A stretch of 64,000 bases of DNA, taken from positions 124,449 to 188,448 of the forward strand of contig CAVPBF010000004.1 of the NCBI GenBank assembly GCA_963701845.1. The letters run 5' to 3'. The notes beneath the pieces were generated by a model. That model had not been told where the DNA came from. It saw only the letters and a program-made list of their open reading frames with translations, and did not search any database. Below are positions 4,141 to 62,572 of this stretch, piece by piece (positions within the stretch are counted from its first letter, which is position 1; each line of letters opens with the position of its first letter). The translations under genes and the position numbers were made by a program. The stretch comes from an uncultured delta proteobacterium. GTDB lineage: Bacteria; Desulfobacterota; Desulfobaccia; Desulfobaccales; 0-14-0-80-60-11.

Positions 4141-4432
4141 CAGCCCAGTGCGAGATAGAAGTATTAGAGCGCAATAGATTGAAAATCACCAGTACCTTGG
4201 AATGGCCTGCTTGTTGATAACTCCTCCTATATGCAAAGTCAAGTTGGCAATCTGCCCCGGTATTCTTTCAGAATCCAAACCAGTCTCATATTCGCGGTTC
4301 CCCGCTCAGGTGGGACCGCTCGATAGCTTGCCAGGAGCGACAGTTATCGTCAGATGATAAGAAATTGTAGGTATGATGTCGATATAGAATTGGGCAGGGC
4401 CTATCGGGTCGAGGTTTCTGCGCTTGACTCCG

Positions 4433-5593
4433 CTACTTACTATCCAGGTTTCCCCTTTTGAGAGCGCTGCCGTTCATCGCCTGATTAAGCAGGTCCCCCG
4501 CCACGTCAGAGGCCCGGTGTAGTGCTTCATCCCTCAGGTGGGCGTATCTCTGCGTCATGGCGGCGCTCTTGTGAGTCAAGAGCTTTTGCAGGGTGTAGAG
4601 GTCCACCTGTCCCGATGAGGCCAGCATAGAGGCGTAGGTGTGCCTGAGGCCATGCAAGGCTCGGAAGTCCTTGGGGAGGCCCGCCGCCTCTTTAATGCGA
4701 GTTACTTGCTTGTTAATGTCGGTGCGCTGGTTTCCCCCACGTCCAGGGAAAACAAAAGGGCTGCCGGTCCTGGGGTGCGCCGCCAGGAGCTCGCGAGCCG
4801 CCTGGTTCAGGGGTATCTTTTGGTCAACCCCGCCTTTGGGTCCCCGGATATGGATAAACCTTCGCTCAAAATCCACGTCCTGCCATTGTAGCCGGAACAG
4901 TTCGCCCCGCCTCATGCCGGTGAACAGAGCCATTTTCATAAAATTGGCGGCCTGTTGGTTAAGGTCCTGTTCTATGGCCTCCAGCAGGGCGGTAAGCTGC
5001 TCTGGGTTGAGGTCTTCGGTCTTCTTATTATGAACCTTGGGGAGTTCTATCTTAAAGGGTGTGCCAGGGCAGAGACCCTTATTAGCGCCAAAATTGATAA
5101 CCCGTTTCAGCAGGGCCAGGACGTGCTTGACGGTTTGAGGCTTCCGGGTTTTCGCCACGCCGATCCGCAGCCGATCAACCTCCAGGTAGGCGATATCTTG
5201 GGGTTCCTTTTTCCCCAGGCCCGCCTTGAGGTATTTTTCATACCGGCCCCGATCCACCTTTAACCCCTTGGAGTCGTGTTTCTGGGCGCTGTATTCCTGC
5301 CAGAGACGGTCAACCGTCCAGCGCCCCGCCTCTGCTTTTATGTCCGCTTCCCGTTGCTCCCTGGCCTCCTGGCGGGATGGTTTCTTGCCTTGCACCCGTT
5401 CAGAGCGAAGCATGGAGGCCCTGGCCGGGGTCATGTCGTCCTGAAGTTGCCGCCCCGCCTTTTCCTCAATCATCTTCCCGGCCTTGCGATAGCGGATATA
5501 GAAAATTTTTTCAGGCTTGCCCGTGGACGGTGAAGTCCCCTCGATGAAGAACACTCCGGGGTAGTTCGTCTTCATTCTCTTTAAAATCGGCAT
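4433..5593 (-). CDS. tyrosine-type site-specific integrase (phage/island integrase)
   Basis: Catalytic C-terminal motifs: MALFTGMRRGEL (Arg), HGLRHTYASML (H-x-x-R), LLTHKSAAMTQRYAHL (His/Tyr). Preferred start is MPILKRM at 5593, behind GGGAGG; the ORF-track start at 5641 is probably too long. Confidence 0.9.
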   Translation of the reverse strand: MPILKRMKTNYPGVFFIEGTSPSTGKPEKIFYIRYRKAGKMIEEKAGRQLQDDMTPARASMLRSERVQGKKPSRQEAREQREADIKAEAGRWTVDRLWQEYSAQKHDSKGLKVDRGRYEKYLKAGLGKKEPQDIAYLEVDRLRIGVAKTRKPQTVKHVLALLKRVINFGANKGLCPGTPFKIELPKVHNKKTEDLNPEQLTALLEAIEQDLNQQAANFMKMALFTGMRRGELFRLQWQDVDFERRFIHIRGPKGGVDQKIPLNQAARELLAAHPRTGSPFVFPGRGGNQRTDINKQVTRIKEAAGLPKDFRALHGLRHTYASMLASSGQVDLYTLQKLLTHKSAAMTQRYAHLRDEALHRASDVAGDLLNQAMNGSALKRGNLDSK

Positions 5594-5777
5594 TGCCTCT
5601 GCCTCCCACGGTGATTTTATTCCCCACACTATTCCCCACACTTGAGACTAATATAAGGGTATAAATGAGTAAGTCAAGAAAAAAGTGAGGACAGAAAATG
5701 CCATGTAATCAATGGTTTATAAGAAAGGTGGGTAAGGGCCAGTAAACTATACCCTCTGGCCTGTCACGCCGGAGGTC

Positions 5778-8348: not shown

Positions 8349-8700
8349 CCGGCTTCCCGCCGGCTAACCACAGCCGGCCTTAATCCCCATCCCCAAGTCT
8401 TGAAATCCGCTCAGATCCCCAGAGGCAGTCAGCTCAATTTTGATTAATATTTTTGGAGATAGAGGCGATAAGCAAATAGCTCTTTTGGAGGATGCAGGAT
8501 GGCCCGAGCGGGCAATCTTGCCGGCTGCAGTCGGCGAGCAGGTCGCCCGGACTCTGCCGCCTGGCGACCGGGAAGAGCGCCCCAGCCGTATCTATCGATG
8601 TTCAGGATAGCCAATCTTTGATTAATTTCTTGAACATTCCTGTGGCTTTCGAGTGGCAGGGCGCAGCGATATTATAATGATATCAATCTGATGACCATAT

Positions 8701-11071: not shown

Positions 11072-11159
11072 GGAGGGATGGCCGAGCGGTTTAAGGCGGC
11101 GGTCTTGAAAACCGCAGACTCTAACGGGTCCGGGAGTTCGAATCTCTCTCCCTCCGCCA
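11072..11159 (+). tRNA. tRNA-Ser (anticodon UGA)
   Basis: ggaggga acceptor pairs with tccctcc. Anticodon arm gcggt-CTTGAAA-accgc gives anticodon TGA. Long variable arm, T-arm gggag-ttcgaat-ctctc, G73 and encoded CCA. 88 nt. Confidence 0.92.
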
Positions 11160-12431: not shown

Positions 12432-14129
12432 ATGACTCCAGAAAGGCTTCGGGAAATCATCTCCGGAGGCGAAAGCCTGACCGTGGAATTTAAAGGAGAG
12501 GAGAAGAGACCCCTCTCGGATAACGATTTCCTGGAGGCGGTGGTCTGCCTGGCGAATCGATCCAAAGAGGATCTGGGCTGGCTTCTGGTGGGCGTGGAAG
12601 ACGATGGCCGAGTGACCGGGGCCAGGCCACACCAGGGTGACAGCATAGATCCCCTCAGGGTGCAGGCCCTCATTGCCAACCGCACCCGCCCTAACCTTAC
12701 CTGCCGGGCCGAAATAGTCTCCTTGGAGGGTAAACCCGTACTGGTCATTGAGGTGCCTTTGGCCGCAGTGCATGTGGGCACTTCGGATGGCAAATATTTG
12801 CGGAGGATTATTGGCGGCAAAGGTAAACCGCAGTGTGTTCCCTTTTTCTTCCACGAAGAACTCTCTTGGCAGGCCAGCCGCGGGGTGGTGGATTACTCAT
12901 CCCTCATGGTTCCTGAGGCCCAATGGGAAGACCTGGACCCCTTGGAATTTGAACGCTTGCGCCGGATGATTCGGGAAAGTCGGGGGCGAGGAGACGCCCC
13001 ACTTCTGGAGCTTTCCGACCTGGATTTGGCAAAAGCTTTGCATGCGGTGGAGGCCAATCATGAGGTCAAAGGCATCCGAGTCCTGGCCCTGCTGCTTTTT
13101 GGGAAGGAAGGCGCCCTGAGGAGGTTTCTCCCAACCCATGAAGTTGCCTTTCAGGTTCTTGCCGGCCTGGAGGTCGAGGTAAATGATTTCTTCGCCTGGC
13201 CCCTCTTCCGGGTCATGGAGGAGGTAGATACCCGCTTCCGGGCCCGCAACAGAGAAGAAGAGCTGATGATCGGCCTCCTGCGTCTCGGTATTCCCGATTA
13301 TCCTGAACGAGCCTTCCGAGAAGCTCTGGCAAATGCCCTGATTCATCGGGATTACACCCGGATGGGAGCGGTCCATATACAGTGGCACCCTGATCACTTG
13401 TCGATTTCCAACCCTGGCGGCTTTCCCGAAGGTGTGCGTCTTGACAACCTCCTGGTCACCCCACCCCGCCCCCGAAATCCGCTGCTGGCCGATGCCTTCA
13501 AAAGGGCCGGAATTGTGGAGCGCACCGCCCGAGGTATCGACACCATTTTTTTTGAACAACTCCGTAATGGTCGTCCGGCTCCCACTTATGGGCGGAGCAC
13601 CGATACCGACGTCATTCTGGTATTGCCGGGAGGCAAGGCCAACCTGGGGTTTGTCCGCCTTATAGTCGAAGAAAATCAGGCCGGGCGCCCTTTGGGTCTC
13701 GATCATCTATTGCTTCTCAATCATATCTTTTGGGAACGGCGGCTTACTGCAGCCCAAGCTACCCAAATTATTCAAAAGCCGGATACCGAAGGCCGGGCCG
13801 TTCTGGAGCACTTGGTGGAAGGAGGGATCCTGGAAGCCCGGGGGGAAGGCAAGGGCAGGGCCTACCATCTTTCGGCGGCCACTTACCGCCGTTTGGGGGA
13901 AAAGTCGGCCTATGTCCGCACCCGGGGCTTTGAACCCCTCCAACAAGTACAAATGATCCTTCAATTTGTGGAAAAGCACGGAAAGATATCACGTTCTGAA
14001 GCCGCTGAACTTTGCCAGTTAAAGCCGATGCAGGCTTACCGGTTGCTGCAAAAGCTGGTCAAACAGGGCCTTTTGACACCACGAGGTGGTAGAGGGAGGG
14101 GAGTTACGTACGTGCAAAAACCACCCTAA
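12432..14129 (+). CDS. AlbA_2 (Schlafen-like) + HATPase_c_4 + wHTH protein (COG2865-type, RecG-like putative transcriptional regulator)
   Basis: N-terminal GGESLTVEFKGEE..LEAVVCLANRS..GWLLVGVEDDGRVTG (AlbA_2 pattern). Central REALANALIHRDY (HATPase_c_4 pattern). C-terminal winged-helix-like region. RBS GGAAGGAAA. Confidence 0.85.
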   Translation: MTPERLREIISGGESLTVEFKGEEKRPLSDNDFLEAVVCLANRSKEDLGWLLVGVEDDGRVTGARPHQGDSIDPLRVQALIANRTRPNLTCRAEIVSLEGKPVLVIEVPLAAVHVGTSDGKYLRRIIGGKGKPQCVPFFFHEELSWQASRGVVDYSSLMVPEAQWEDLDPLEFERLRRMIRESRGRGDAPLLELSDLDLAKALHAVEANHEVKGIRVLALLLFGKEGALRRFLPTHEVAFQVLAGLEVEVNDFFAWPLFRVMEEVDTRFRARNREEELMIGLLRLGIPDYPERAFREALANALIHRDYTRMGAVHIQWHPDHLSISNPGGFPEGVRLDNLLVTPPRPRNPLLADAFKRAGIVERTARGIDTIFFEQLRNGRPAPTYGRSTDTDVILVLPGGKANLGFVRLIVEENQAGRPLGLDHLLLLNHIFWERRLTAAQATQIIQKPDTEGRAVLEHLVEGGILEARGEGKGRAYHLSAATYRRLGEKSAYVRTRGFEPLQQVQMILQFVEKHGKISRSEAAELCQLKPMQAYRLLQKLVKQGLLTPRGGRGRGVTYVQKPP

Positions 14130-15433: not shown

Positions 15434-15751
15434 TGGGACGATAAACCGGCTTTTGCGCCCAAAATACGCCCATACGCGCTTCCACCCTCAGCTTAGACAA
15501 GGTTGATAAAAACCGGTTGGGTTAGGGGCGTTCATAACACCAATTTCGATTTGCGGATCATATCCTCAACTAATTGCTTTTCTAAAGAAGTTGCGGTTTT
15601 GGCAAGTTAGCCGCGTCGGTCGAAGGATTGAATCCAATGGTGTGAGGGGTATGATTTCTGCTCTACTCGAGGCGGAAATCGCAGGAATTAAATTTGACCA
15701 ACAGGCCGAGAATAAGGAATCGTGAGGCATAAACCACCCGGAGGATTTGAG

Positions 15752-16443
15752 CTAATCTGATGGGTCCAAATGGCCATCCTTGAGGTGGTAAACATAATCG
15801 AACCCTTCGATCATCCGCACATCGTGGGTGACCACGATCACGGCCGACTGGTTTTCCTTAGCGATTTTCTTGAGCATTTCCATGACCTTTTTGCCGCGCA
15901 CGGTATCCAGCGAGGCGGTGGGTTCGTCGGCCAGGATAAGCCTGGGGTTGTTGGCCAGGGCCCGGGCGATGGCCACCCGTTGCTGTTCGCCGCCGGAGAG
16001 CAGGGCCGGCAGGTAATCGGCCCGGTCGGCGATTTCCATGTACTCCAGAAGTTCCATGACCCGGTTATCGGCGCGCCTCCCCTTTAGCGCCCACCAGGCT
16101 TAAGGGAAAACAGGACATTCTGGCGGGCCGTCAGGAAGGGAATGAGGTTGTGGGCCTGGAAGATAAAGCCCATCTTCTCCCGGCGGAGGCGCCGGATATC
16201 CACTCCTCCGGACCAGCCGTTTTTCTGAAAAATCGTCTGGCCGTCAAAGACGATTTTCCCGGCGGTGGGGTCGAGAATTAGGCTGGTGCACAGCAGCATG
16301 GTGGTCTTGCCGGAGCCGCTGGGTCCTAGCAGGGCGACCAGGTCTCCGGCGGCTACCGAAAGATTGATATCCTCCAGGGCCCGCACCTCCAGCCGGCCCG
16401 ACCCGAAAATCTTGCTCAGGCCTTCGATCCTCAAGACTTCCAT
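15752..16443 (-). pseudogene. ABC transporter ATP-binding protein (DevA/MacB/LolD-like), one frame disruption
   Basis: MEVLRIEGLSKIF..LLGPSGSGKTT (Walker A) lies in ORF 16084..16680. [15 protein letters not shown] (signature) and LILADEPT (Walker B) lie in ORF 15752..16057. The break is near 16060-16095. Confidence 0.85.
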
Positions 16444-17646
16444 CACTGCCCTCCCAGGGCCAGGGCCGGTTCGGTCTTCAAAGCCTGGCGGACGCCCAGG
16501 CCGCTGGCCAGGATCGCTCCCAGCAGGGCTATTAAGAAAGTGATAAGGTGGTCGCCGGGTAGCAGCACGACTCGCCTCGGAAAAAGTTGGTAGGTATTGG
16601 AGATGAGAATCAAGCCGAAAAGAAAGCTGCTGCAGGTCAGGAGCAGAGATTCCTCCAGCACCATGCGGATGATCACCCAATTGGGGGCGCCGATGAGCTT
16701 CATGACGGCAATGCTGCGAATTTTTTCCATGGTGAAGGTGTAGATGACCAGGGAAATAATCACCATGGAAACGATAAAGAGTATAATCCGGAAAAGGATG
16801 GTCTGCGCCTTGGCCTTGGCCAATTTTCCCTGCAGCATCAGGTTTATCTGCTGGTCAGTGGTATAAACCGAGAGATAAAGCCATTTTTGAATTTGTTGGC
16901 TAACGGTGTGGGCGTCCGCTCCCGGAGTCAATTTCACCACGACGGCGTTAATGATATGGGTGTCGGGCAGCAGACGCGGCCAGGTACTTATCAGCTTCCG
17001 ACTGGGAGAAGCCTCCCGAGCGCGTCAGGCTCTGCCACAAACGCTCCCGCTGGTTACGGATCTCTTCGTTATCCCGCTGAAACAGCACCTCCTGGGCGTC
17101 CGGCAGTGATAAATACACCAGGGGTTCTCCGTCTACGTCGCTGCCCTGGGAAGTCAACCCCACCACCCGATAGGTATGCAGCCCCAGCCGGACCATCTCT
17201 CCCACTTTTAGCCCTAATTTTTTATGAGCCACCATTTCATAATGAGCCCGGTCGATGCCGTGACCGGCCACGATATCCTGGGGCCCTCCCAGACCGCCGA
17301 AAACATCGTAGCCGACGATGGCGAAGCGCCGGTTTCTTCCCTGGATTTTCCTTTCCACGGGATAATAGATGAGAGGACTGGCCTGGGCGACGCCGGCAAT
17401 GGCGGCAACGCTATAATGATAGAACTCGGGCAGAATGGACTGCTCATTGATAGGACCGCCCCGGTAGCGCTCCACCACCCAGAGGTCGGGATTGGTGGTC
17501 TTGATGAAGGAAAGCCCTTCCAGCAGGAAGCCCCGGTAAATGCCGTTAAACGGCCAGGACCACGGCGAAGAGCAGACCCACCCCGATGATGGTGGCGATG
17601 AAGCGCCCTTTATGGATGCTTGAGGTCGTAGAATGGCTAAGTCCAT
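16443..17646 (-). pseudogene. ABC exporter permease (DevC/FtsX-like), multiple frame disruptions
   Basis: Fragments HKGRFIATIIGVGLLFAVVLA / FNGIYRGFLLEG...RVVGLTSQGSD / VNAVVVKLTPGADA...MKLIGAPNWVIIRMVLEESLLL together form one MacB/DevC-type permease. ATGA-type overlap with the ATPase start at 16443. Confidence 0.75.
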
Positions 17647-18814
17647 CAGTCCCCTCTGGGTCGGTTTGCCTGATTTCCGGTTGAATCTTCTGACCGGGCA
17701 TGAGACCGGCTGGGTTAATGACTACCAAGTCGCCCCTCTTTCAGACCCTCCAGTTACCGCGCTTCGCCTGCCGTCGTTGCAACCCCAGGGAAACTTTTTG
17801 GAAGCGCAGCAATGCCCTCATCCGCCACCAGCACGCCCTTAGCAGCCGTTCCTGGTGAGAATGGCGGATAGGGGCACCGCCAGTGCCGTCTGACGGCCGG
17901 TATCAATATCCACCTCGGCTTCCTCCCCGATGACCAGGGGCTGGGGCAATTTATCGAACTTCACATCCACTTCCAGTTCCCGGGTGACGGTGTCGGCCTC
18001 TTGGTTGAGGCGAACCACCTCGCCCTGGAAAATCCGGCCCGGAACGCAGTGTGATCCGGCCGGCTGGCCCTCCCGCAGTTGGGCGACCTGGGTCTGGTCA
18101 ATCCAGGCAGCCACCCAGAGCATGGTCCGGGTCCACCATCTGAAAGATGGGGGTGCCGGGAGCGATGGTGGTGCCGATTTCCGCTTTGCGCACCGTGATC
18201 AGGCCGTCCATGGGGGCCACAATGCGCGTGTAGTTATGGAGCGCCGCCGCGGCGTGGGTTTCCGATTCCGCCTGCTTGACCGCGGCCTCCAGGGCCGTCA
18301 CCGTGGCCTTGGTGGCCGCGACCTCGCTTTCCGCCACCTTTAGTTGGGCCTTGGTGGTGTCAAAGGCCGCTTTGGAGATGTAGCCGGGCTTGAAGACCTC
18401 CAGGTCCCGCTGGTAGTTGCTTTGGGCCAGCCCCAGGTTGGCCTGGGCTTTGCCCATATCCGCCTGGGCCCGGCCCAGGTCCCGCTGGGCGCGGCTCTTG
18501 GCAGCCTGGGCGGCCATCTGCCGGGCCCGCAATTCCATCGCGTCCAATTTCGCCAGGAGTTGGCCTTTCTGCACCCGGTCGCCCTGGTCGGCATAGAGTT
18601 TTTCCAGGATGCCGGTGATCTTGGCGCTCACCGTAACCGGCACTTTGCATTGCACTGTGCCCGGGCCATGAACTTTGCCTTGCACTTCAACCTTTTTTAC
18701 CACCATCACCGCCACCGGCGGACGGTGACCAGAAAAGGCGGTAGCCTGCCGAGCAAAATGATGATGAAGCCCGATGGCAACCCCGATAGCTTTCTTGCCC
18801 CCAGGTAATTTCAC
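17644..18814 (-). pseudogene. HlyD/DevB-family membrane fusion protein, frame disruptions
   Basis: Lipoyl/coiled-coil pattern (ITGILEKLYADQGDRVQKGQLLAKLD, then a long Ala/Gln coiled coil; APMDGLIT). The C-terminal barrel fragments ..GEVVRLNQEADTVTRELEVDV.. and ..GLKEGDLVVINPAGLMPGQKIQ lie in other frames. Confidence 0.75.
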
Positions 18815-22337: not shown

Positions 22338-22690
22338 ACTGAGCAGCTAAGGGCGACGCAAATAAATTATTTCTTGTGGTTCTTACGGGGAGAAGCCCAC
22401 ACCGGGTACCCGAAATCATCCCGCAAATTGAAAAACTTGGCCCCTTAAAGACTGCAAAATAGAAGATTACTGCTATAAGTAGAGACTTATCAAGTTCCTG
22501 AAAATTCTACCTATCCGGATCATATATGCAGTTTTTGATTGCTCGGTGATAAGGGAAGGGTTTGGCAAGCTGTACGTAATAAAGTCTGTTTTTTCTATAG
22601 ATTGTGGTGGGTTAGGTACTCTTTTTCTCTCTCATCATTTCCTTACTGTCAAGCGATTTTTGATGTAGCCCTTCTTTCTGGGGGAGTCTA

Positions 22691-22750
22691 GGCAGGGGGC
22701 GCCTGCGAGAATGGGCCCTAAATGGCTCGTCGGAGCAGGCGCCCCCTGCC
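22691..22750. repeat. perfect 16-bp inverted repeat with a 28-nt spacer inside the element
   Basis: ggcagggggcgcctgc (22691-22706) pairs with gcaggcgccccctgcc (22735-22750). Located just 3' of the distal recombinase gene. Confidence 0.8.
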
Positions 22751-22789
22751 GGGTTAGATGCCTGAAGCTTGGTTTTGTCATGGGCTCAC

Positions 22790-23666
22790 TCATCCAGTCC
22801 TCTGCAGAACCACCGCCATGGCCTGGTGATAGTCCCGCTGCACCTTGAGATTGGACACCCGGCAGTAGCGCTGGGTGGTCTTGATCCGGGTATGTCCCAG
22901 GAGATCCTGGATGGTCACCAGGGCAGCATCGGCATTGAGGAGCTGGGTGGCCATGGTGTGCCGCAGCTGGTGGCACGACACCTTGAGCCTTGCCTGGCGG
23001 GCGTAATGCTCCAGGCGTTTTTGGATGCCCCGCACCGAGATGGCTTTGCCCCGGCATCTGCCTTTATCCACCAGGAAGACTTCTTTGACCCGGCTGGCCG
23101 GCCGTACCCGGAGATACTGGACCAGGGCCTCATAGGCATCATCGCTCAGGTAGACCACCCGATCTTTGGCGCCTTTGCCATGGTGGACAAAGAGCTGACT
23201 GCGCCGCAGGTCCAGGGCGGCCAGTTTCAGCCGGGCCACCTCCTCCACCCGCAAGCCGCAGCGGAGCATCAGCATGACCATGGCCCGATCCCGCTGGTGG
23301 TGGACGACCTTGAGGAGCCTGTGGACCTCTTCATCCCGCAGGTGACGGGGCAACGGCCGGGACAGCCGCAAGGCATAGCCGCGCTTCACCGGGTTGACCA
23401 TCGGCCACCTGCTCTTCTTCAATCAGGTAGTGGTAAAACCCCCGGATGCTGTCCAGATGGCAGTTGATGGTCTTGGGCTGCAGCCCTCTATCCAGCAGGT
23501 GATCGAGGTATGCCAGCAGCTTCTTATGGGTCACCGCCTCGATGGGGACATCCACCCAGACCACGAACTGCTTCAGCGTGTGCATATAGTTCTTAATGGT
23601 ATGGCCCGAGTAGTTCCTTCTCTTCAAGAACCGGCGGTAATTCAGGATGGCGGTGGTAATGGCCAT
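22790..23666 (-). pseudogene. tyrosine recombinase (XerC/D-like), one frame disruption near 23400
   Basis: The N-terminal SAM-like domain (TIKNYMHTLKQFVVW..INCHLDSIRGFYHYL) is in ORF 23331..23666. The catalytic domain is in ORF 22790..23422 (LRCGLRVEEV, HHGKGAKDR, HQLRHTMATQLL, LLGHTRIKTTQRY). Confidence 0.85.
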
Positions 23667-24698
23667 GGGGTTCTCCCTTTTCGATGATCGCCATCGCCCG
23701 GAAGTACTCTTCCCGGCGGGTGTTGTCCGTCAACCTGGCGTAACGCCGGGTCATCTCGATGCTGCTGTGGCCCAGGAGCTGTTGCAGACACTCCAGGCGC
23801 ATGCCGGCGTTCAACAGCTCGGTGGCGCAGGTATGCCGCAGACAATGCAGACTATAGCCCTTATGCGCCAGGCCTGCCTTTTCCAGATATCTTGACGAAC
23901 CTCATTCGGCTCGCAGTGTAGCCCAAACGCAGCCGTCCCTGGCCGTAAAACAGACGCTCCTTCTCCGGGTCTCTCTTTTCCAGCCACACTGTTAAGGCCT
24001 GCACAGGCGTCCTCACTTAAGTAGGCCACCCGGCCCACCCGCGTCTTCTGGGCTTCCCTGATGATGATCCGCTTTTCCCTGAGGTTCACCTCGCTCATCC
24101 TGGTGGCCAGCAGTTCCCCGATGCGCATCCCGGTCCGGAGCAACACTAGGATCAGGGCCCGGTCCCGGGGTTTCTCAATCACAGCCAGGAACTGCTGGAC
24201 ATCCTCCGGGTCCATGGCCCGGGGCAGCGCCTCCGGCACCTTGACCCGCAGCTTCCTTTTCAGCAGATCGGGATGCACCACTTCCTGATCCACCAGATAC
24301 CGGAGAAAGGCATAGAGGAGTCTCAACCGGGTGGACACGGTGTTGGGCTGCATGCCCCGGTCCTGCTCGTGTTCGATAAAGCTGCTCATATCATCCCGGG
24401 TGATGGTTTCCAGGGAGGTCCTACCCCGCTCCTTCAGGTAGGACAGAAAGAGCATCAACGTCGTAAAGTTGCTGCGGATGGTGTTGGGCCGGCAGTTGCG
24501 CCGCTTCTGGTCGTGCAAATAGTCCTTGACGTATGGCTCCCCCAACAGTTCCTTTTCGCCCAACTGCTTTAAGCACTTTTCAATCAGCGGATTCTGGAGA
24601 CTAGGGTGTAACCCGTCCGTGACTTGAGGCGGACTCCCAGGTGGGTTGAACGGCTGGCGGTCTGGGAATTTCTCTTGAGGAACATGCTCAATGGTCAT
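23593..24698 (-). pseudogene. second tyrosine recombinase, at least two frame disruptions near 23860-23990
   Basis: Start MTIEHV at 24698 behind AAGGAGG. Contains TIRSNFTTLMLFLSYL and LLRTGMRIGEL. The C-terminus continues in other frames as ..TVWLEKRDPEKERLFYGQGR.. and ..HCLRHTCATELLNAGMRLECLQQLLGHSSIEMTRRYARL. Its 3' end overlaps the start of the downstream recombinase. Confidence 0.85.
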
Positions 24699-24822
24699 CA
24701 CTACCTCCTTTTCCTCAGAAAAAACAGGTAGATGATGACCTGGAAATCTATCTCCCGTCAATCACCTTTTTATTACGTACAGTGGCAAGATATCAACCAC
24801 TGAGAGAGAATTGGCGAAAGTG

Positions 24823-49292: not shown

Positions 49293-50614
49293 TGTATGCC
49301 TATCATGGTGATTTAGCCAGATTGATCCGTGATTGTTGGCCAACTGAGGCCGGAGATGGAACGGGTAGAGGCGAATTTCCCGCCGTTCCCCTTCCTGCCC
49401 CTCCCTTCTTTGAAAATCTCCTCTCAATCTGTTACCAGGTCAGCATGCTGCGTGAGGAAGAGACGCCGGTAACTCTCCGTATTCTGATCGCGGGGCCTGA
49501 GGTTTTTTTAAATCAAGCGGTTCCACCTATGGGACTCCACCGCCTGGTATTTTCAAACCCAAGGCCTTGTAATGAAAAAGAATTGAAAAAATTATCGCCA
49601 GCCGTGGACTTTTCGCGCTCTTTGGTGGGAGTTGCGCTGAATCCGGAAGGTGAATGGGATATCTGGGGACTGGTGCATTCCGGAAGCCGTTGGCTGCAAC
49701 ATCATCATGGCGGCCGCAAAAAACCGCCGGAATTTCCTAATGCGCCCGTCATTTGGGTGAGGGGGCCCGGACGACTGACAGTGCTCAGGGGAAGCGAGGG
49801 TTTGGCGACCCTGACTGAAGGCCGGATTCTCACTCCCGCGATCAATGTCTTTGAATCAATCTGGCTCAGGGAGTATTTGGGGTTAGTCCAGCTCGAGTGG
49901 CCTGAAACGTATGTCAATCTGTGGGAGAAACAAAATTGGCAATCGATTACCGATCCGAATTTTCCCGGCATAATTGTCAAGCAGGCACTGATGCGTATCA
50001 TCAGTACCATGCGTGAGGCCCACAAAGGCGGCACCATCATTATTGTGCCCCATGAACGCCGTAATGAATTCACTTCGAGGAACCCGTTGATAAACATCAA
50101 ATATCAGTTCAAGGAAGATGAGTCGCGATATCGTTCTTTGAGACTAATGTTCGAAACCCTTCAAACCCTGGCAGAGGAAAAAGGCCACAAAATTGATAGC
50201 GGCAAAAAGCTTAGCTGGCAGGAGTATATCGATAGTGACAGTAAAAAACTGTCCTGCCTCGAAGAAGCGTGGGTCGAAATATCCCATCAACTGGCGGACT
50301 TTGCGATGGTTGACGGCGCGGTGGTGCTAACCAAAGGCGGTTGTATGCTTGGTTTTGGCGGGATGATCTTAGGTGACTATGACCAGGTAACGACGGTCAC
50401 CAGGGCCTTGGATATAGAAGGGAAGCACCGGCAGGAGGAATTGACCGAGAATGTCGGCGCGCGCCACCGCTCCGTCTATTATTTATGCAATCAGGTTCCC
50501 GAAGCCCTGGGGATCGTGATCTCGCAAGATGGCAATGCTCGGTTCATCAAATTTAAGGATGGGCAGGTTACTTATTGGGAGCAGCCCATTTCATTTGCGC
50601 TGAAAATTTCATGA
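49293..50614 (+). CDS. DAC (DisA_N)-like nucleotide cyclase domain protein with an uncharacterised N-terminal about 230-aa region
   Basis: Ordered motifs HKGGTIIIV / DGAVVL / GARHRS / VISQDGNARF parallel the DAC motifs GALIVI / DGA / TRHR / VSEETG. The N-terminal half has no family I recognise. Start is taken at MYAYHGD. Confidence 0.55.
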
Positions 50615-61627: not shown

Positions 61628-62572
61628 ATGAGAGGATCGCCAGTTTACCAAGTAACTCAAGTACTTAATTCTATTGCGGCTTTTGGGGAATCTAAGCATC
61701 AGGCCAAAGAGGCGGTCCGAGCAGCTGGTGCCAAGACCTGGCATGAGATGGGACAACACTTGGGAGTCTACAGCTTCAATACAATCAATTTATATCGCAG
61801 CATTTCGATAGAAGCATCACGATATGCGAAAGAAGCGTTTGTTATCAAAGATATTACAAAATTATCACCAGAAGTAGTGAGCGGGTTCCTTGAAGCAAAA
61901 ATCGCTGATGGCTTAAAATATGGCTCCTTCAAGACTTACTGTGCAGCACTCGAAAAATTGGCAGTGGCTCTAAAACTTTGGGCTCAGCAACACGAAACCG
62001 AATCAAACGATTACCACAATTATGACTGGTCGGCAGAGATTCAAGTGGCAAAAATAGAAGCAAAAGAAGTGCTTGATAGCATCGTTGAGACCAGGGCTTA
62101 TGAGGATCCGGAAGGATTAATAAAAGCAATATCTGATCCATCATATCATGTCGTTGCTTCAGCTCAATATAGCATTGGAGCCAGAATTTCTGAATTGGAC
62201 CATGTACGACAGGAACAGTTTTTAGGAGATGACCAATTTAAGATCATCAAAGGTAAAGGAGGCAAAGATAGGGTTGTCGAATTTCGGCATGGTAATGTTT
62301 ATGAGCAATATAGGCAAAAGGTAATTCATAACCTTAACCCACATTACGACAAATTTACGTTTAACCGGAACCAGTACCGGATGGCCCTAAAAGCAGCAGC
62401 CGACAAAACAGGGCAAGCGTACACAGGGAGTCATGGTTTACGGTGGAACTATGCTCAGGAACGTTTCCAAATGATTCAGCAAGGCGGTGGGACCTGGGAG
62501 GAAGCCTTAGTCCAAGTGGCGCATGAGATGGGCCACAGCAGGGGCGATATCACTCTACATTACCTCAGATAG
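61628..62572 (+). CDS. tyrosine recombinase/integrase (plasmid/ICE-type, divergent)
   Basis: GARISEL (Arg), IKGKGGKDR (Lys), SHGLRWNYA (H-x-x-R), HSRGDITLHYL (His/Tyr). Start chosen at MRGSPVYQ (61628) behind GGGAGTGG; the ORF-track start is 61589. Confidence 0.8.
   Translation: MRGSPVYQVTQVLNSIAAFGESKHQAKEAVRAAGAKTWHEMGQHLGVYSFNTINLYRSISIEASRYAKEAFVIKDITKLSPEVVSGFLEAKIADGLKYGSFKTYCAALEKLAVALKLWAQQHETESNDYHNYDWSAEIQVAKIEAKEVLDSIVETRAYEDPEGLIKAISDPSYHVVASAQYSIGARISELDHVRQEQFLGDDQFKIIKGKGGKDRVVEFRHGNVYEQYRQKVIHNLNPHYDKFTFNRNQYRMALKAAADKTGQAYTGSHGLRWNYAQERFQMIQQGGGTWEEALVQVAHEMGHSRGDITLHYLR

Follow-up and report, generated by a model that had tools for sequence, protein, structure and literature searches.

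The locus considered here raises the question of what kind of unit consists of two overlapping recombinase genes and nothing else, set between short perfect inverted repeats and flanked on both outer sides by the same seven nucleotides. It occupies positions 22570–24782 of a 64,000-nucleotide stretch of DNA (the window, here always in full) from an uncultured delta proteobacterium of the Desulfobacterota (assembly GCA_963701845.1, contig CAVPBF010000004.1, positions 124,449–188,448). The explanation that best accounts for the evidence as a whole, with a probability of about 0.75, is that this segment is one copy of a family of insertion-sequence-sized elements that occur in bacteria of the sulfate-reducer type and carry two tyrosine recombinases. 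The features of the copy are as follows, left and right being given in gene orientation.

24783–24789, no strand: left-hand 7-bp core, outside the left end; TGGCAAG on the plus strand, CTTGCCA in gene orientation; 60 of 68 family members have matching 7-mers at their two ends
24769–24782, minus strand: left terminal inverted repeat CTGTACGTAATAAA, at the end adjoining the first recombinase gene; consensus CTRTACGTAAYAAA kept in 23 lineages
24732–24763, minus strand: promoter-like region of the left end, GATTGACG (−35-like TTGACG), 18 nt and CATCAT (−10-like); putative function
24717–24727, minus strand: subterminal box CTGTTTTTTCT(A) at the left, with the promoter-like region on its outer side and the ribosome-binding site on its inner side; kept family-wide at both ends in inverted orientation
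23593–24698, minus strand: RecA, the upstream tyrosine recombinase; frame broken by +1 insertions near 24001 and 23891, intact relatives having 367 aa
22790–23666, minus strand: RecB, downstream tyrosine recombinase, 291 aa in intact relatives; +1 insertion near 23404
22691–22750, minus strand: perfect 16-bp inverted repeat GGCAGGGGGCGCCTGC with arms 28 nt apart, just 3' of RecB; GC-rich, hairpin-forming and terminator-like, without a T run
22647–22652, minus strand: TTGACA box, conserved and facing outwards, some 65 nt in from the right end; putative junction or outward promoter
22586–22596, plus strand: subterminal box CTGTTTTTTCT(A) at the right, separated from the right inverted repeat by 2 nt
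22570–22583, plus strand: right terminal inverted repeat CTGTACGTAATAAA
22563–22569, no strand: right-hand copy of the 7-bp core, TGGCAAG

The element and its relatives

The terminal repeats are identical over 14 bp and, apart from a displaced 12-nt box, differ beyond that point; CTGTACGTAATAAA has no third match in the window even with 2 mismatches tolerated, and TGGCAAG lies directly outside both copies. Perfect 14-bp inverted pairs spaced 0.5–3 kb apart were observed once in the window, against a mean of 1.03 in 100 first-order Markov resamples. A pair with an abutting identical 7-mer appeared in none of the 100 resamples; hence, the composite signal is real.

RecA and RecB are labels assigned in this analysis to the upstream and downstream recombinase genes. 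RecA begins at an ATG at 24698, 6 nt downstream of the ribosome-binding site AAGGAGG, and stops at 23593–23595, while RecB runs from an ATG at 23666 to a stop at 22790–22792; the two overlap by 74 nt, and no other gene lies inside the element. Each protein carries a Pfam Phage_integrase domain and a SAM-like N domain (E about 1e-35 each), and their PF00589 scores of 123 bits (RecA) and 121 bits (RecB) stand well above the cut-off of 27.1, which places both in the tyrosine recombinase superfamily. The catalytic motifs GLR/GMR, HxLRH, LLGH and RY are legible in both reconstructed proteins. RecA and RecB are paralogues (33% identity, 142 bits); among solved structures, RecB comes nearest to archaeal XerA (4a8e, 5hxy), XerD (1a0p) and IntI4, and its alignment to XerA (102 bits) spans the catalytic motifs.

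Such affinities bring to mind chromosomal housekeeping or regulatory recombinases (i.e., Xer dimer resolution, an integron integrase or a fim-like switch) for which the repeats would be fixed sites. The best NCBIfam profiles are indeed XerA, XerC, XerD and integron integrase, and an adjacent pair of tyrosine recombinases recalls fimB/fimE. Every one of these scores, however, falls far under its curated cut-off: XerC requires 335 bits, with RecB reaching 197 and RecA 137, and TIGR02249 (integron integrase) requires 265 bits, with the two proteins reaching 64 and 115. Moreover, the unit has precise boundaries and exists as a mobile, multi-copy gene pair in unrelated contexts; it lacks a cassette array, and the asymmetric cores are directly oriented, an arrangement that yields excision rather than inversion. 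The housekeeping explanation is therefore considered highly improbable.

The window copy departs from its relatives in its reading frames. Alignment with five intact relatives shows one extra base at each of three points, two in RecA (near 24001 and 23891) and one in RecB (near 23404), and the copy is probably disabled while its ends are intact. These frameshifts may be genuine decay or long-read assembly errors, the source assembly being probably long-read in view of the 2.07-Mb contig. An ABC-transporter operon elsewhere in the window (15752–17728, minus strand), which bears on how the frameshifts are read, is likewise broken into several open reading frames (ORFs), with its ATPase divided between 16084–16680 and 15752–16057 and its permease between 16948–17646 and 16443–16940; either pseudogenisation or long-read indel errors would account for this split.

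Relatives of the element are numerous. Hundreds of metagenome sequences are more than 90% identical to the reconstructed RecB, and one RecB cluster at 90% holds 962 sequences, many of them on contigs of about 2.2 kb, as is expected of a repeat that breaks assemblies. A scan of species representatives (one genome per species) returned 182 relatives, of which 80 loci were retained, almost all from metagenome-assembled genomes (MAGs) of Desulfobacterota (Desulfobaccales, Syntrophobacterales, Desulfobacterales and Syntrophales); the genes that neighbour the element in the window indicate Desulfobaccales. Several MAGs carry two to four copies, in one case with three copies on a single 645-kb long-read contig, and the element with its conserved ends was found in more than 50 distinct genomic contexts. 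Across the family, its size is 2.1–2.4 kb, with conserved inverted repeats and the two recombinase genes only, a state shared by all 67 full-length members; the family thus has the features by which an insertion sequence (IS) is defined operationally (under about 3 kb, own mobility functions only, defined ends, multiple contexts). Of the 67 full-length elements, 57 retain both ORFs intact. Purifying selection acts on both genes, the median dN/dS being 0.225 in RecA and 0.104 in RecB. No relative above 35% identity was found among PLSDB plasmids, and IMG/VR viral contigs held no close relative, with matches of 29–43% identity only.

Ten contigs that share one identical RecB (L001–L010) carry an intact pair of 367 and 282 aa among wholly different neighbours. 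These are JGI soil metagenome contigs with possible assembly chimerism, and paired-flank arguments were restricted to long-read contigs. Among them, identical elements share a common left flank and have different right flanks (for example, L001/L002/L007, L003/L009 and L006/L008). In eight further cases (L033, L034, L037, L038, L048, L063, L068 and L070), the element sits on a short contig of 2–7 kb binned with another taxon (Gemmatimonadota, Bacteroidales, Nitrospinaceae, Shewanella, Cytophagia, Bathyarchaeia and Dehalococcoidales MAGs), for which mis-binned repeat contigs are likelier than a true host range, although horizontal transfer may be involved. An internal-deletion derivative of 1.4 kb was also encountered (L032, 3964–5383), in which most of RecA is gone and the ends are intact; it has the core CGTGCCA on both sides and adjoins a left-end-like flank (CTGTCCGTAATG..).

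The original prediction, made from the window's letters and a list of their ORFs, had described 14-bp inverted repeats with TGGCAAG on both outer sides, and these proved exact. It had further described two overlapping XerC/D-like tyrosine recombinases, both frame-disrupted, as the sole content, which agrees with the three 1-bp insertions located here. The second motif that it had seen at different offsets inside the two ends, CTGTTTTTTCT, turned out to be a family-wide 12-nt box, and the further copies for which it had called were recovered in different contexts with the same architecture of inverted and direct repeats.

Core, ends and landing sites

The flanking 7-mer carries most of the argument. 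In the 68 elements with both ends definable, CTRTACGTAAYAAA opens each end, and the 7-mers on the two sides are identical in 60. In the lineage of the window copy and in several more, CTTGCCA is the flanking 7-mer at dozens of sites that are unrelated to one another; other lineages have GCTGTCA, CTCCAAC, TATTCTC, CAAATAC, CTTCCTG, CCTATAT, CGTGCCT, TTATCGA or one of about ten more; altogether, some 20 variants occur, each constant inside a lineage and differing between lineages. A single cluster of at least 85% DNA identity contains the cores CTTGCCA, TTTGCCA and CTGCCCT, each on both sides of its own element, and three different cores occur among the lineages within one MAG. A transposase duplication would vary from site to site, and a target specified by protein would not change between near-identical recombinases; henceforth, the 7-mer is read as a crossover core carried by the element, since its constancy within and difference between lineages fit a carried core and not staggered-cut repair. 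This is the same preference, for a duplicated crossover core over a transposase-type duplication, that the original prediction had expressed.

The opposite possibility, that a DDE-type transposase encoded elsewhere left an ordinary target-site duplication, would at least explain why inverted repeats and a short direct repeat occur together, since this is the classic signature of such enzymes. It fails to explain why the same "duplication" recurs in dozens of independent insertions and varies from lineage to lineage only, or why the inverted repeats co-evolve with the recombinase lineages, and no transposase is consistently linked to the element; its probability is judged to be close to nil.

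The ends themselves follow a common plan in the 23 lineages. From the outside inwards, the left end consists of the inverted repeat, a −35-like TGATTGAC, 17–18 nt, a −10-like TCATCATCT, CCTGTTTTTTCTA, about 10 nt, AAAGGAGG and the ATG; at the right end, the inverted repeat is followed by 2 nt and CTGTTTTTTCTA. A promoter consensus scan of the left end in the window was not significant alone, and the pair TGATTGAC ... TCATCATCT is kept across divergent lineages. The 12-nt box CTGTTTTTTCTA occurs family-wide in both ends in inverted orientation, and in the window it is represented by CTGTTTTTTCT at 22586–22596 (plus strand) and 24717–24727 (minus strand), 17 and 56 nt inside the two element ends. 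As the left box lies between promoter and ribosome-binding site, it is likely a putative accessory or autoregulatory binding site. An outward CTTGACA stands 60–75 nt inside the right end in most lineages (22652–22647 in the window), including nearly all of those with a right non-coding region of at least 60 nt; as a putative promoter, its TTGACA box could fire across a circle junction into recA. The 16-bp hairpin at 22691–22750 has a conserved loop in some lineages and is missing from the most compact ones, which marks it as an optional insert.

Evidence on a circular form was sought in a single metagenome scan for the predicted junction, using the degenerate pattern TTACGTAYAG-N7-CTRYACGTAA, which gave 15 loci. 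One of them, L100, is a 2246-nt SPAdes contig from a distant member of the family (RecA 48% and RecB 57% identical), and it reads 43 nt of flank, ACAGGAA, the whole element, ACAGGAA and then the element's first 38 nt repeated. Its true flanks share no long exact word, so the join must exist in the reads. The junction has the form inverted repeat, 7 bp, inverted repeat, a lox/dif-like layout seen in this distant relative only, and it represents either a circle or a head-to-tail dimer, each of which is expected from recombination at the core. In L092 and L099, the element flank has one inverted-repeat-like arm beside the core. Solo palindromes of inverted repeat, 7 nt and inverted repeat were noticed as well (L091 1092–1118, L093 1913–1939, L103 791–817 and L094 43–69); their arms are identical to the family ends over 14–20 nt, no recombinase gene is present on those contigs, and in L091 and L093 both arms are of the right-end type.

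An alternative that retains the family and changes only its chemistry is a replicative, strand-biased "copy-out" route such as that of the transposons SE and Tn554, in which one strand pair is exchanged, replication completes the circle, the donor stays in place and the 7-mer is a fingerprint of the previous site. Several copies within single genomes would follow naturally from it, and so would the unequal 7-mers of a few elements such as L077, L008, L088 and L052, because carry-over of the donor core produces such flanks in Tn554 and SE (PMC10214605). Multiple copies, however, could also result if the element were excised after replication or if circles integrated into sister chromosomes; 60 of 68 elements have identical 7-mers, as Tn554 and SE insertions normally do not, and no third gene resembling TnpC/Srap or Tfp is present. 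Copy-out is thus regarded as unlikely, albeit the least improbable of the alternatives weighed here.

The sites entered by the family were compared by using 60 unique left flanks and 58 unique right flanks. The resulting consensus has G, A and T at −5 to −3, two W positions, the core, two W positions, and A, T and C at +3 to +5, followed by A at +9 and T at +11 and +12, with a weaker mirror image on the left; in shorthand, it is the weak palindrome GATWW-N7-WWATC. This consensus of the arms is unchanged when CTTGCCA elements are excluded, and it appears that protein recognises the arms, with the centre recognised through DNA identity. Insertions of other lineages show the same arm consensus, often with a second half-site downstream. 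In the window, GATWW-N7-WWATC was observed 4 times against 0.69 expected, at 8668–8684, 50089–50105, 61850–61866 and 15548–15564; the last lies inside an empty copy of the module described below, and the other three, whose spacers differ, may be further sites of the target type.

A conserved intergenic module, some 75 nt long, has about half of the CTTGCCA insertions at its left edge, that of the window among them, and is regarded as a repeated host landing pad. Its consensus is GATAn, CTTGCCA, N9, GTTATCACC, N8–10, AAAATTGCAGATAT, N7 and ATATCAGAATTGGG, or in short form CTTGCCA-N9-GTTATCACC-..-TTGCAGATAT-N7-ATATC, and its second half, itself palindromic around a variable 7-nt spacer, conforms to the consensus of the target arms. 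Three copies lie in the window.

22498–22569, minus strand: occupied landing-pad module with the element at its edge, in gene orientation CTTGCCA-N9-CTTATCACC-N..-CTGCATATAT-GATCCGG-ATAGG; nhmmer profile E = 3e-13, aligned with 15 other copies
4318–4403, plus strand: empty module, ..GATAG CTTGCCA GGAGCGACAGTTATCGTC..ATTGTAGGTAT-GATGTCG-ATATAGAATTGGG; E = 5e-15
15535–15615, minus strand: second empty module, ..GCTAA CTTGCCA AAACCGCAACTTCTT..GAGGATAT-GATCCGC-AAATCGAAATTGG; E = 5e-11

Each of the three follows the stop of a co-oriented gene and faces a convergent gene, and the element itself is inserted between convergent crp-like and MMPL genes. Unoccupied modules with a single CTTGCCA are also present in relatives (L012 8251–8336, L030 5739–5816, L056 1610–1670 and L106 147–219). 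Empty sites of the type that the original prediction had asked for exist both in the window and beyond it; an orthologous empty site for the window insertion itself was not found. The conserved repeated landing pad at the insertion had been overlooked.

Other identities for the module were considered. That of an RNA was rejected, as the module has no Rfam match and its RNAalifold consensus is a 5-bp stem of −0.39 kcal/mol; for a possible sigma-54 or sigma-70 promoter, inspection showed no convincing spacing. It was also rejected as the attachment site of the 402-aa integrase encoded at 4433–5641, whose relatives adjoin tRNA genes in islands without the module. Use of the module's second, variable-spacer site by lineages other than CTTGCCA was rejected, as no upstream CTTGCCA module was found at their insertions.

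Route of movement and known systems

From the sequence patterns described above, a route of movement can be proposed. RecA and RecB would cooperate in the manner of XerC and XerD, and recombination between the two 7-bp cores abutting the inverted repeats would release the element as a circle whose junction consists of the right inverted repeat, one core and the left inverted repeat, that is, 14-bp inverted arms around an asymmetric 7-bp spacer. For the CTTGCCA lineage, this junction would read ...TTATTACGTACAG-CTTGCCA-CTGTACGTAATAA..., the corresponding head-to-tail junction having been seen in one distant relative. The circle would then integrate by reciprocal strand exchange into a target with arms that loosely follow GATWW / WWATC(N3)A-N-TT and a central 7 bp that match the carried core, a homology rule taken from the general chemistry of tyrosine recombinases. 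After integration, one core would come from the element and one from the target, hence the apparent "target duplication" of constant sequence. As the core would be read by DNA pairing and not by protein, a lineage could switch its target by changing its core, which is supported by the close relatives with different cores. The left end would bear the promoter and ribosome-binding site for recA-recB, with the CTGTTTTTTCTA box in a putative accessory or autoregulatory role and the outward TTGACA acting across the junction. Overall, the element appears to work like a self-contained Xer/dif or Cre/lox unit turned transposon.

Several points weigh against this reading. The requirement for core identity is deduced from the pattern of insertions, and the functions assigned to the promoters, to the subterminal box and to each recombinase are putative. 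The flanking 7-mers are unequal in 8 of the 68 elements, with 4 mismatches in L077, for which heterology may be tolerated, or else core carry-over of the Tn554 kind may have occurred. L100, the single clear junction, may stem from a tandem dimer and not from a free circle, and none of the 15 loci of the metagenome scan is a circle junction of the window's own CTTGCCA lineage. The search for an orthologous empty site matching the window insertion found nothing: crp homologues of 82–86% identity lie in non-syntenic loci, and an exact look-up of the MMPL neighbour and window proteins returned no record. The mixed flanks of L001–L010 may reflect chimeric assembly through the repeat or recombination between copies. 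Finally, as sequenced, the window copy cannot make either RecA or RecB and would be non-autonomous.

Among described elements, recombinase-in-trio (RIT) elements (Van Houdt 2009/2012; Ricker 2013) come closest in general design, being compact, multi-copy units of adjacent, overlapping tyrosine recombinases between inverted repeats without cargo, and transposition has not been reproduced experimentally for RIT or for the two-recombinase family. The differences are considerable: RIT elements have three genes (ritA-ritB-ritC) instead of two, imperfect inverted repeats of 34–51 bp with no defined flanking core instead of perfect 14-bp repeats with a 7-bp core, and hosts mainly among the Alpha- and Betaproteobacteria instead of the Desulfobacterota. 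The common design, in which adjacent overlapping tyrosine recombinase genes are all that lies between the repeats (PMC3414803, PMC10214605), might suggest that the present element is a degenerate RIT that has lost one gene. Against this, all 67 full-length members have two genes with selection on both, and the repeats are 14 bp long rather than 34–51 bp. In pairwise comparison with four pHG1 trios, RecA and RecB reached 23–34% identity and at most 90 bits, with an inconsistent best partner that was never RitB and no specific orthology to RitA, RitB or RitC, whereas the matches between RecA and RecB (142 bits) and between RecB and XerA (102 bits) both exceed these values. RitA, moreover, has two core-binding domains (PMC8138268), and RecA and RecB have one SAM-like N domain each, with neither showing a doubled core-binding domain. 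Descent from RIT is consequently very unlikely; the resemblance raised by the original prediction holds for the general design and does not extend to the proteins, which are closer to each other than to those of pHG1.

Tn554 resembles the family in requiring two tyrosine recombinases together, in its site preference and in a 6–7-nt core that travels with the element. It differs in needing TnpC, in a TnpB of about 630 aa, in lacking clear inverted repeats and a flanking repeat, and in its length of 6.7 kb with resistance cargo in Firmicutes; the present elements, with two genes only (367 and 291 aa) and both inverted and flanking repeats, are set apart from it by description. Similarly, the prokaryotic transposons SE and GInt encode several tyrosine recombinases and adopt a circular form (PMC10214605), but they have four conserved genes, including the non-catalytic Tfp/GinC and Srap/GinD, extend over tens of kilobases with cargo, and reside in Gammaproteobacteria. 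BIM combines one tyrosine recombinase with a conserved SMC-like non-recombinase protein (PMC3414803), an identity rejected here because both genes encode tyrosine recombinases, and IntDes, an unrelated Desulfovibrio subgroup, was rejected as well.

Outside these transposons, XerC/XerD-dif, Cre/loxP and FLP/FRT offer parallels in Xer-like paralogues and in a deduced junction with 14-bp arms and an asymmetric 7-bp spacer. These systems serve dimer resolution or join two fixed sites, unlike the present self-contained transposable unit that invades chromosomal pseudo-sites. In lox- and FRT-type sites, the spacer can have any sequence as long as the partner sites match. Cryptons, which are eukaryotic transposons with a tyrosine recombinase, have been proposed to move as a circle that integrates at a short shared sequence and so leaves an apparent short duplication; they share the proposed circular movement and the short shared sequence with the two-recombinase family and differ in having one recombinase, no inverted repeats and eukaryotic hosts. 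Insertion sequences such as IS1397, ISKpn1 and ISPpu9/10 prefer repetitive extragenic palindromic (REP) sequences or other palindromic repeated intergenic units. Their preference for a repeated palindromic host unit is comparable with that for the 75-nt module; these ISs, however, use DDE or DEDD transposases, and in the present family the central 7 nt of the target apparently must match the element's own core.

A survey from 2023 divided the tyrosine-recombinase transposons of prokaryotes into no more than five groups, with the transposition of RIT and GInt never reproduced in the laboratory and the route of Tn554 unresolved (PMC10214605). In the full-text literature searched, no description of IS-sized elements with two tyrosine recombinases was found, although most subscription journals lay outside the search, which makes this weak evidence. 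The family is apparently undescribed and outside RIT, Tn554, BIM, chromosomal Xer and the other named prokaryotic groups. A bolder claim, which is advanced tentatively and given slightly less than even odds, is that it constitutes a sixth, unrecognised group, a "recombinase-in-duo". In such a group, each end would carry half of a lox-like site, the 7-bp spacer would set the target through DNA–DNA identity and be re-programmable by a single mutation, the paralogues would recognise both the element arms and loosely palindromic host arms, and the lineages would partition the landing pads of Desulfobacterota by core.

The family is far simpler than other multi-recombinase transposons, with two small genes, 14-bp ends and a 7-bp core, and it is abundant with many intact members, which makes it a tractable model. 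It could serve to study how several recombinases cooperate in transposition, how a site-specific recombinase becomes a semi-random transposase and how the identity of a spacer encodes target choice. In practical terms, these elements are now annotated as "XerD" or "integrase", break metagenome assemblies and inflate Xer and integrase counts in Desulfobacterota MAGs. The value of the window copy lies in being an entry point to a large and simple family with lineage-specific crossover cores.

Other features of the window

A third tyrosine recombinase is encoded at 4433–5641 on the minus strand (386–402 aa); its catalytic domain is 31% identical to that of RecA. Island integrases of this kind form a very abundant family, and relatives (L109–L115) lie beside a tRNA gene, followed by ParE, HTH_17 and primase genes; in the window, it does not adjoin the tRNA-Ser gene at 11072–11159. 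A gene at 12432–14129 on the plus strand, placed between this tRNA gene and the second empty module, encodes a protein of 565 aa in which Schlafen/AlbA_2 and HATPase_c_4 domains occur together, a pair that is frequent in defence or mobile regions.

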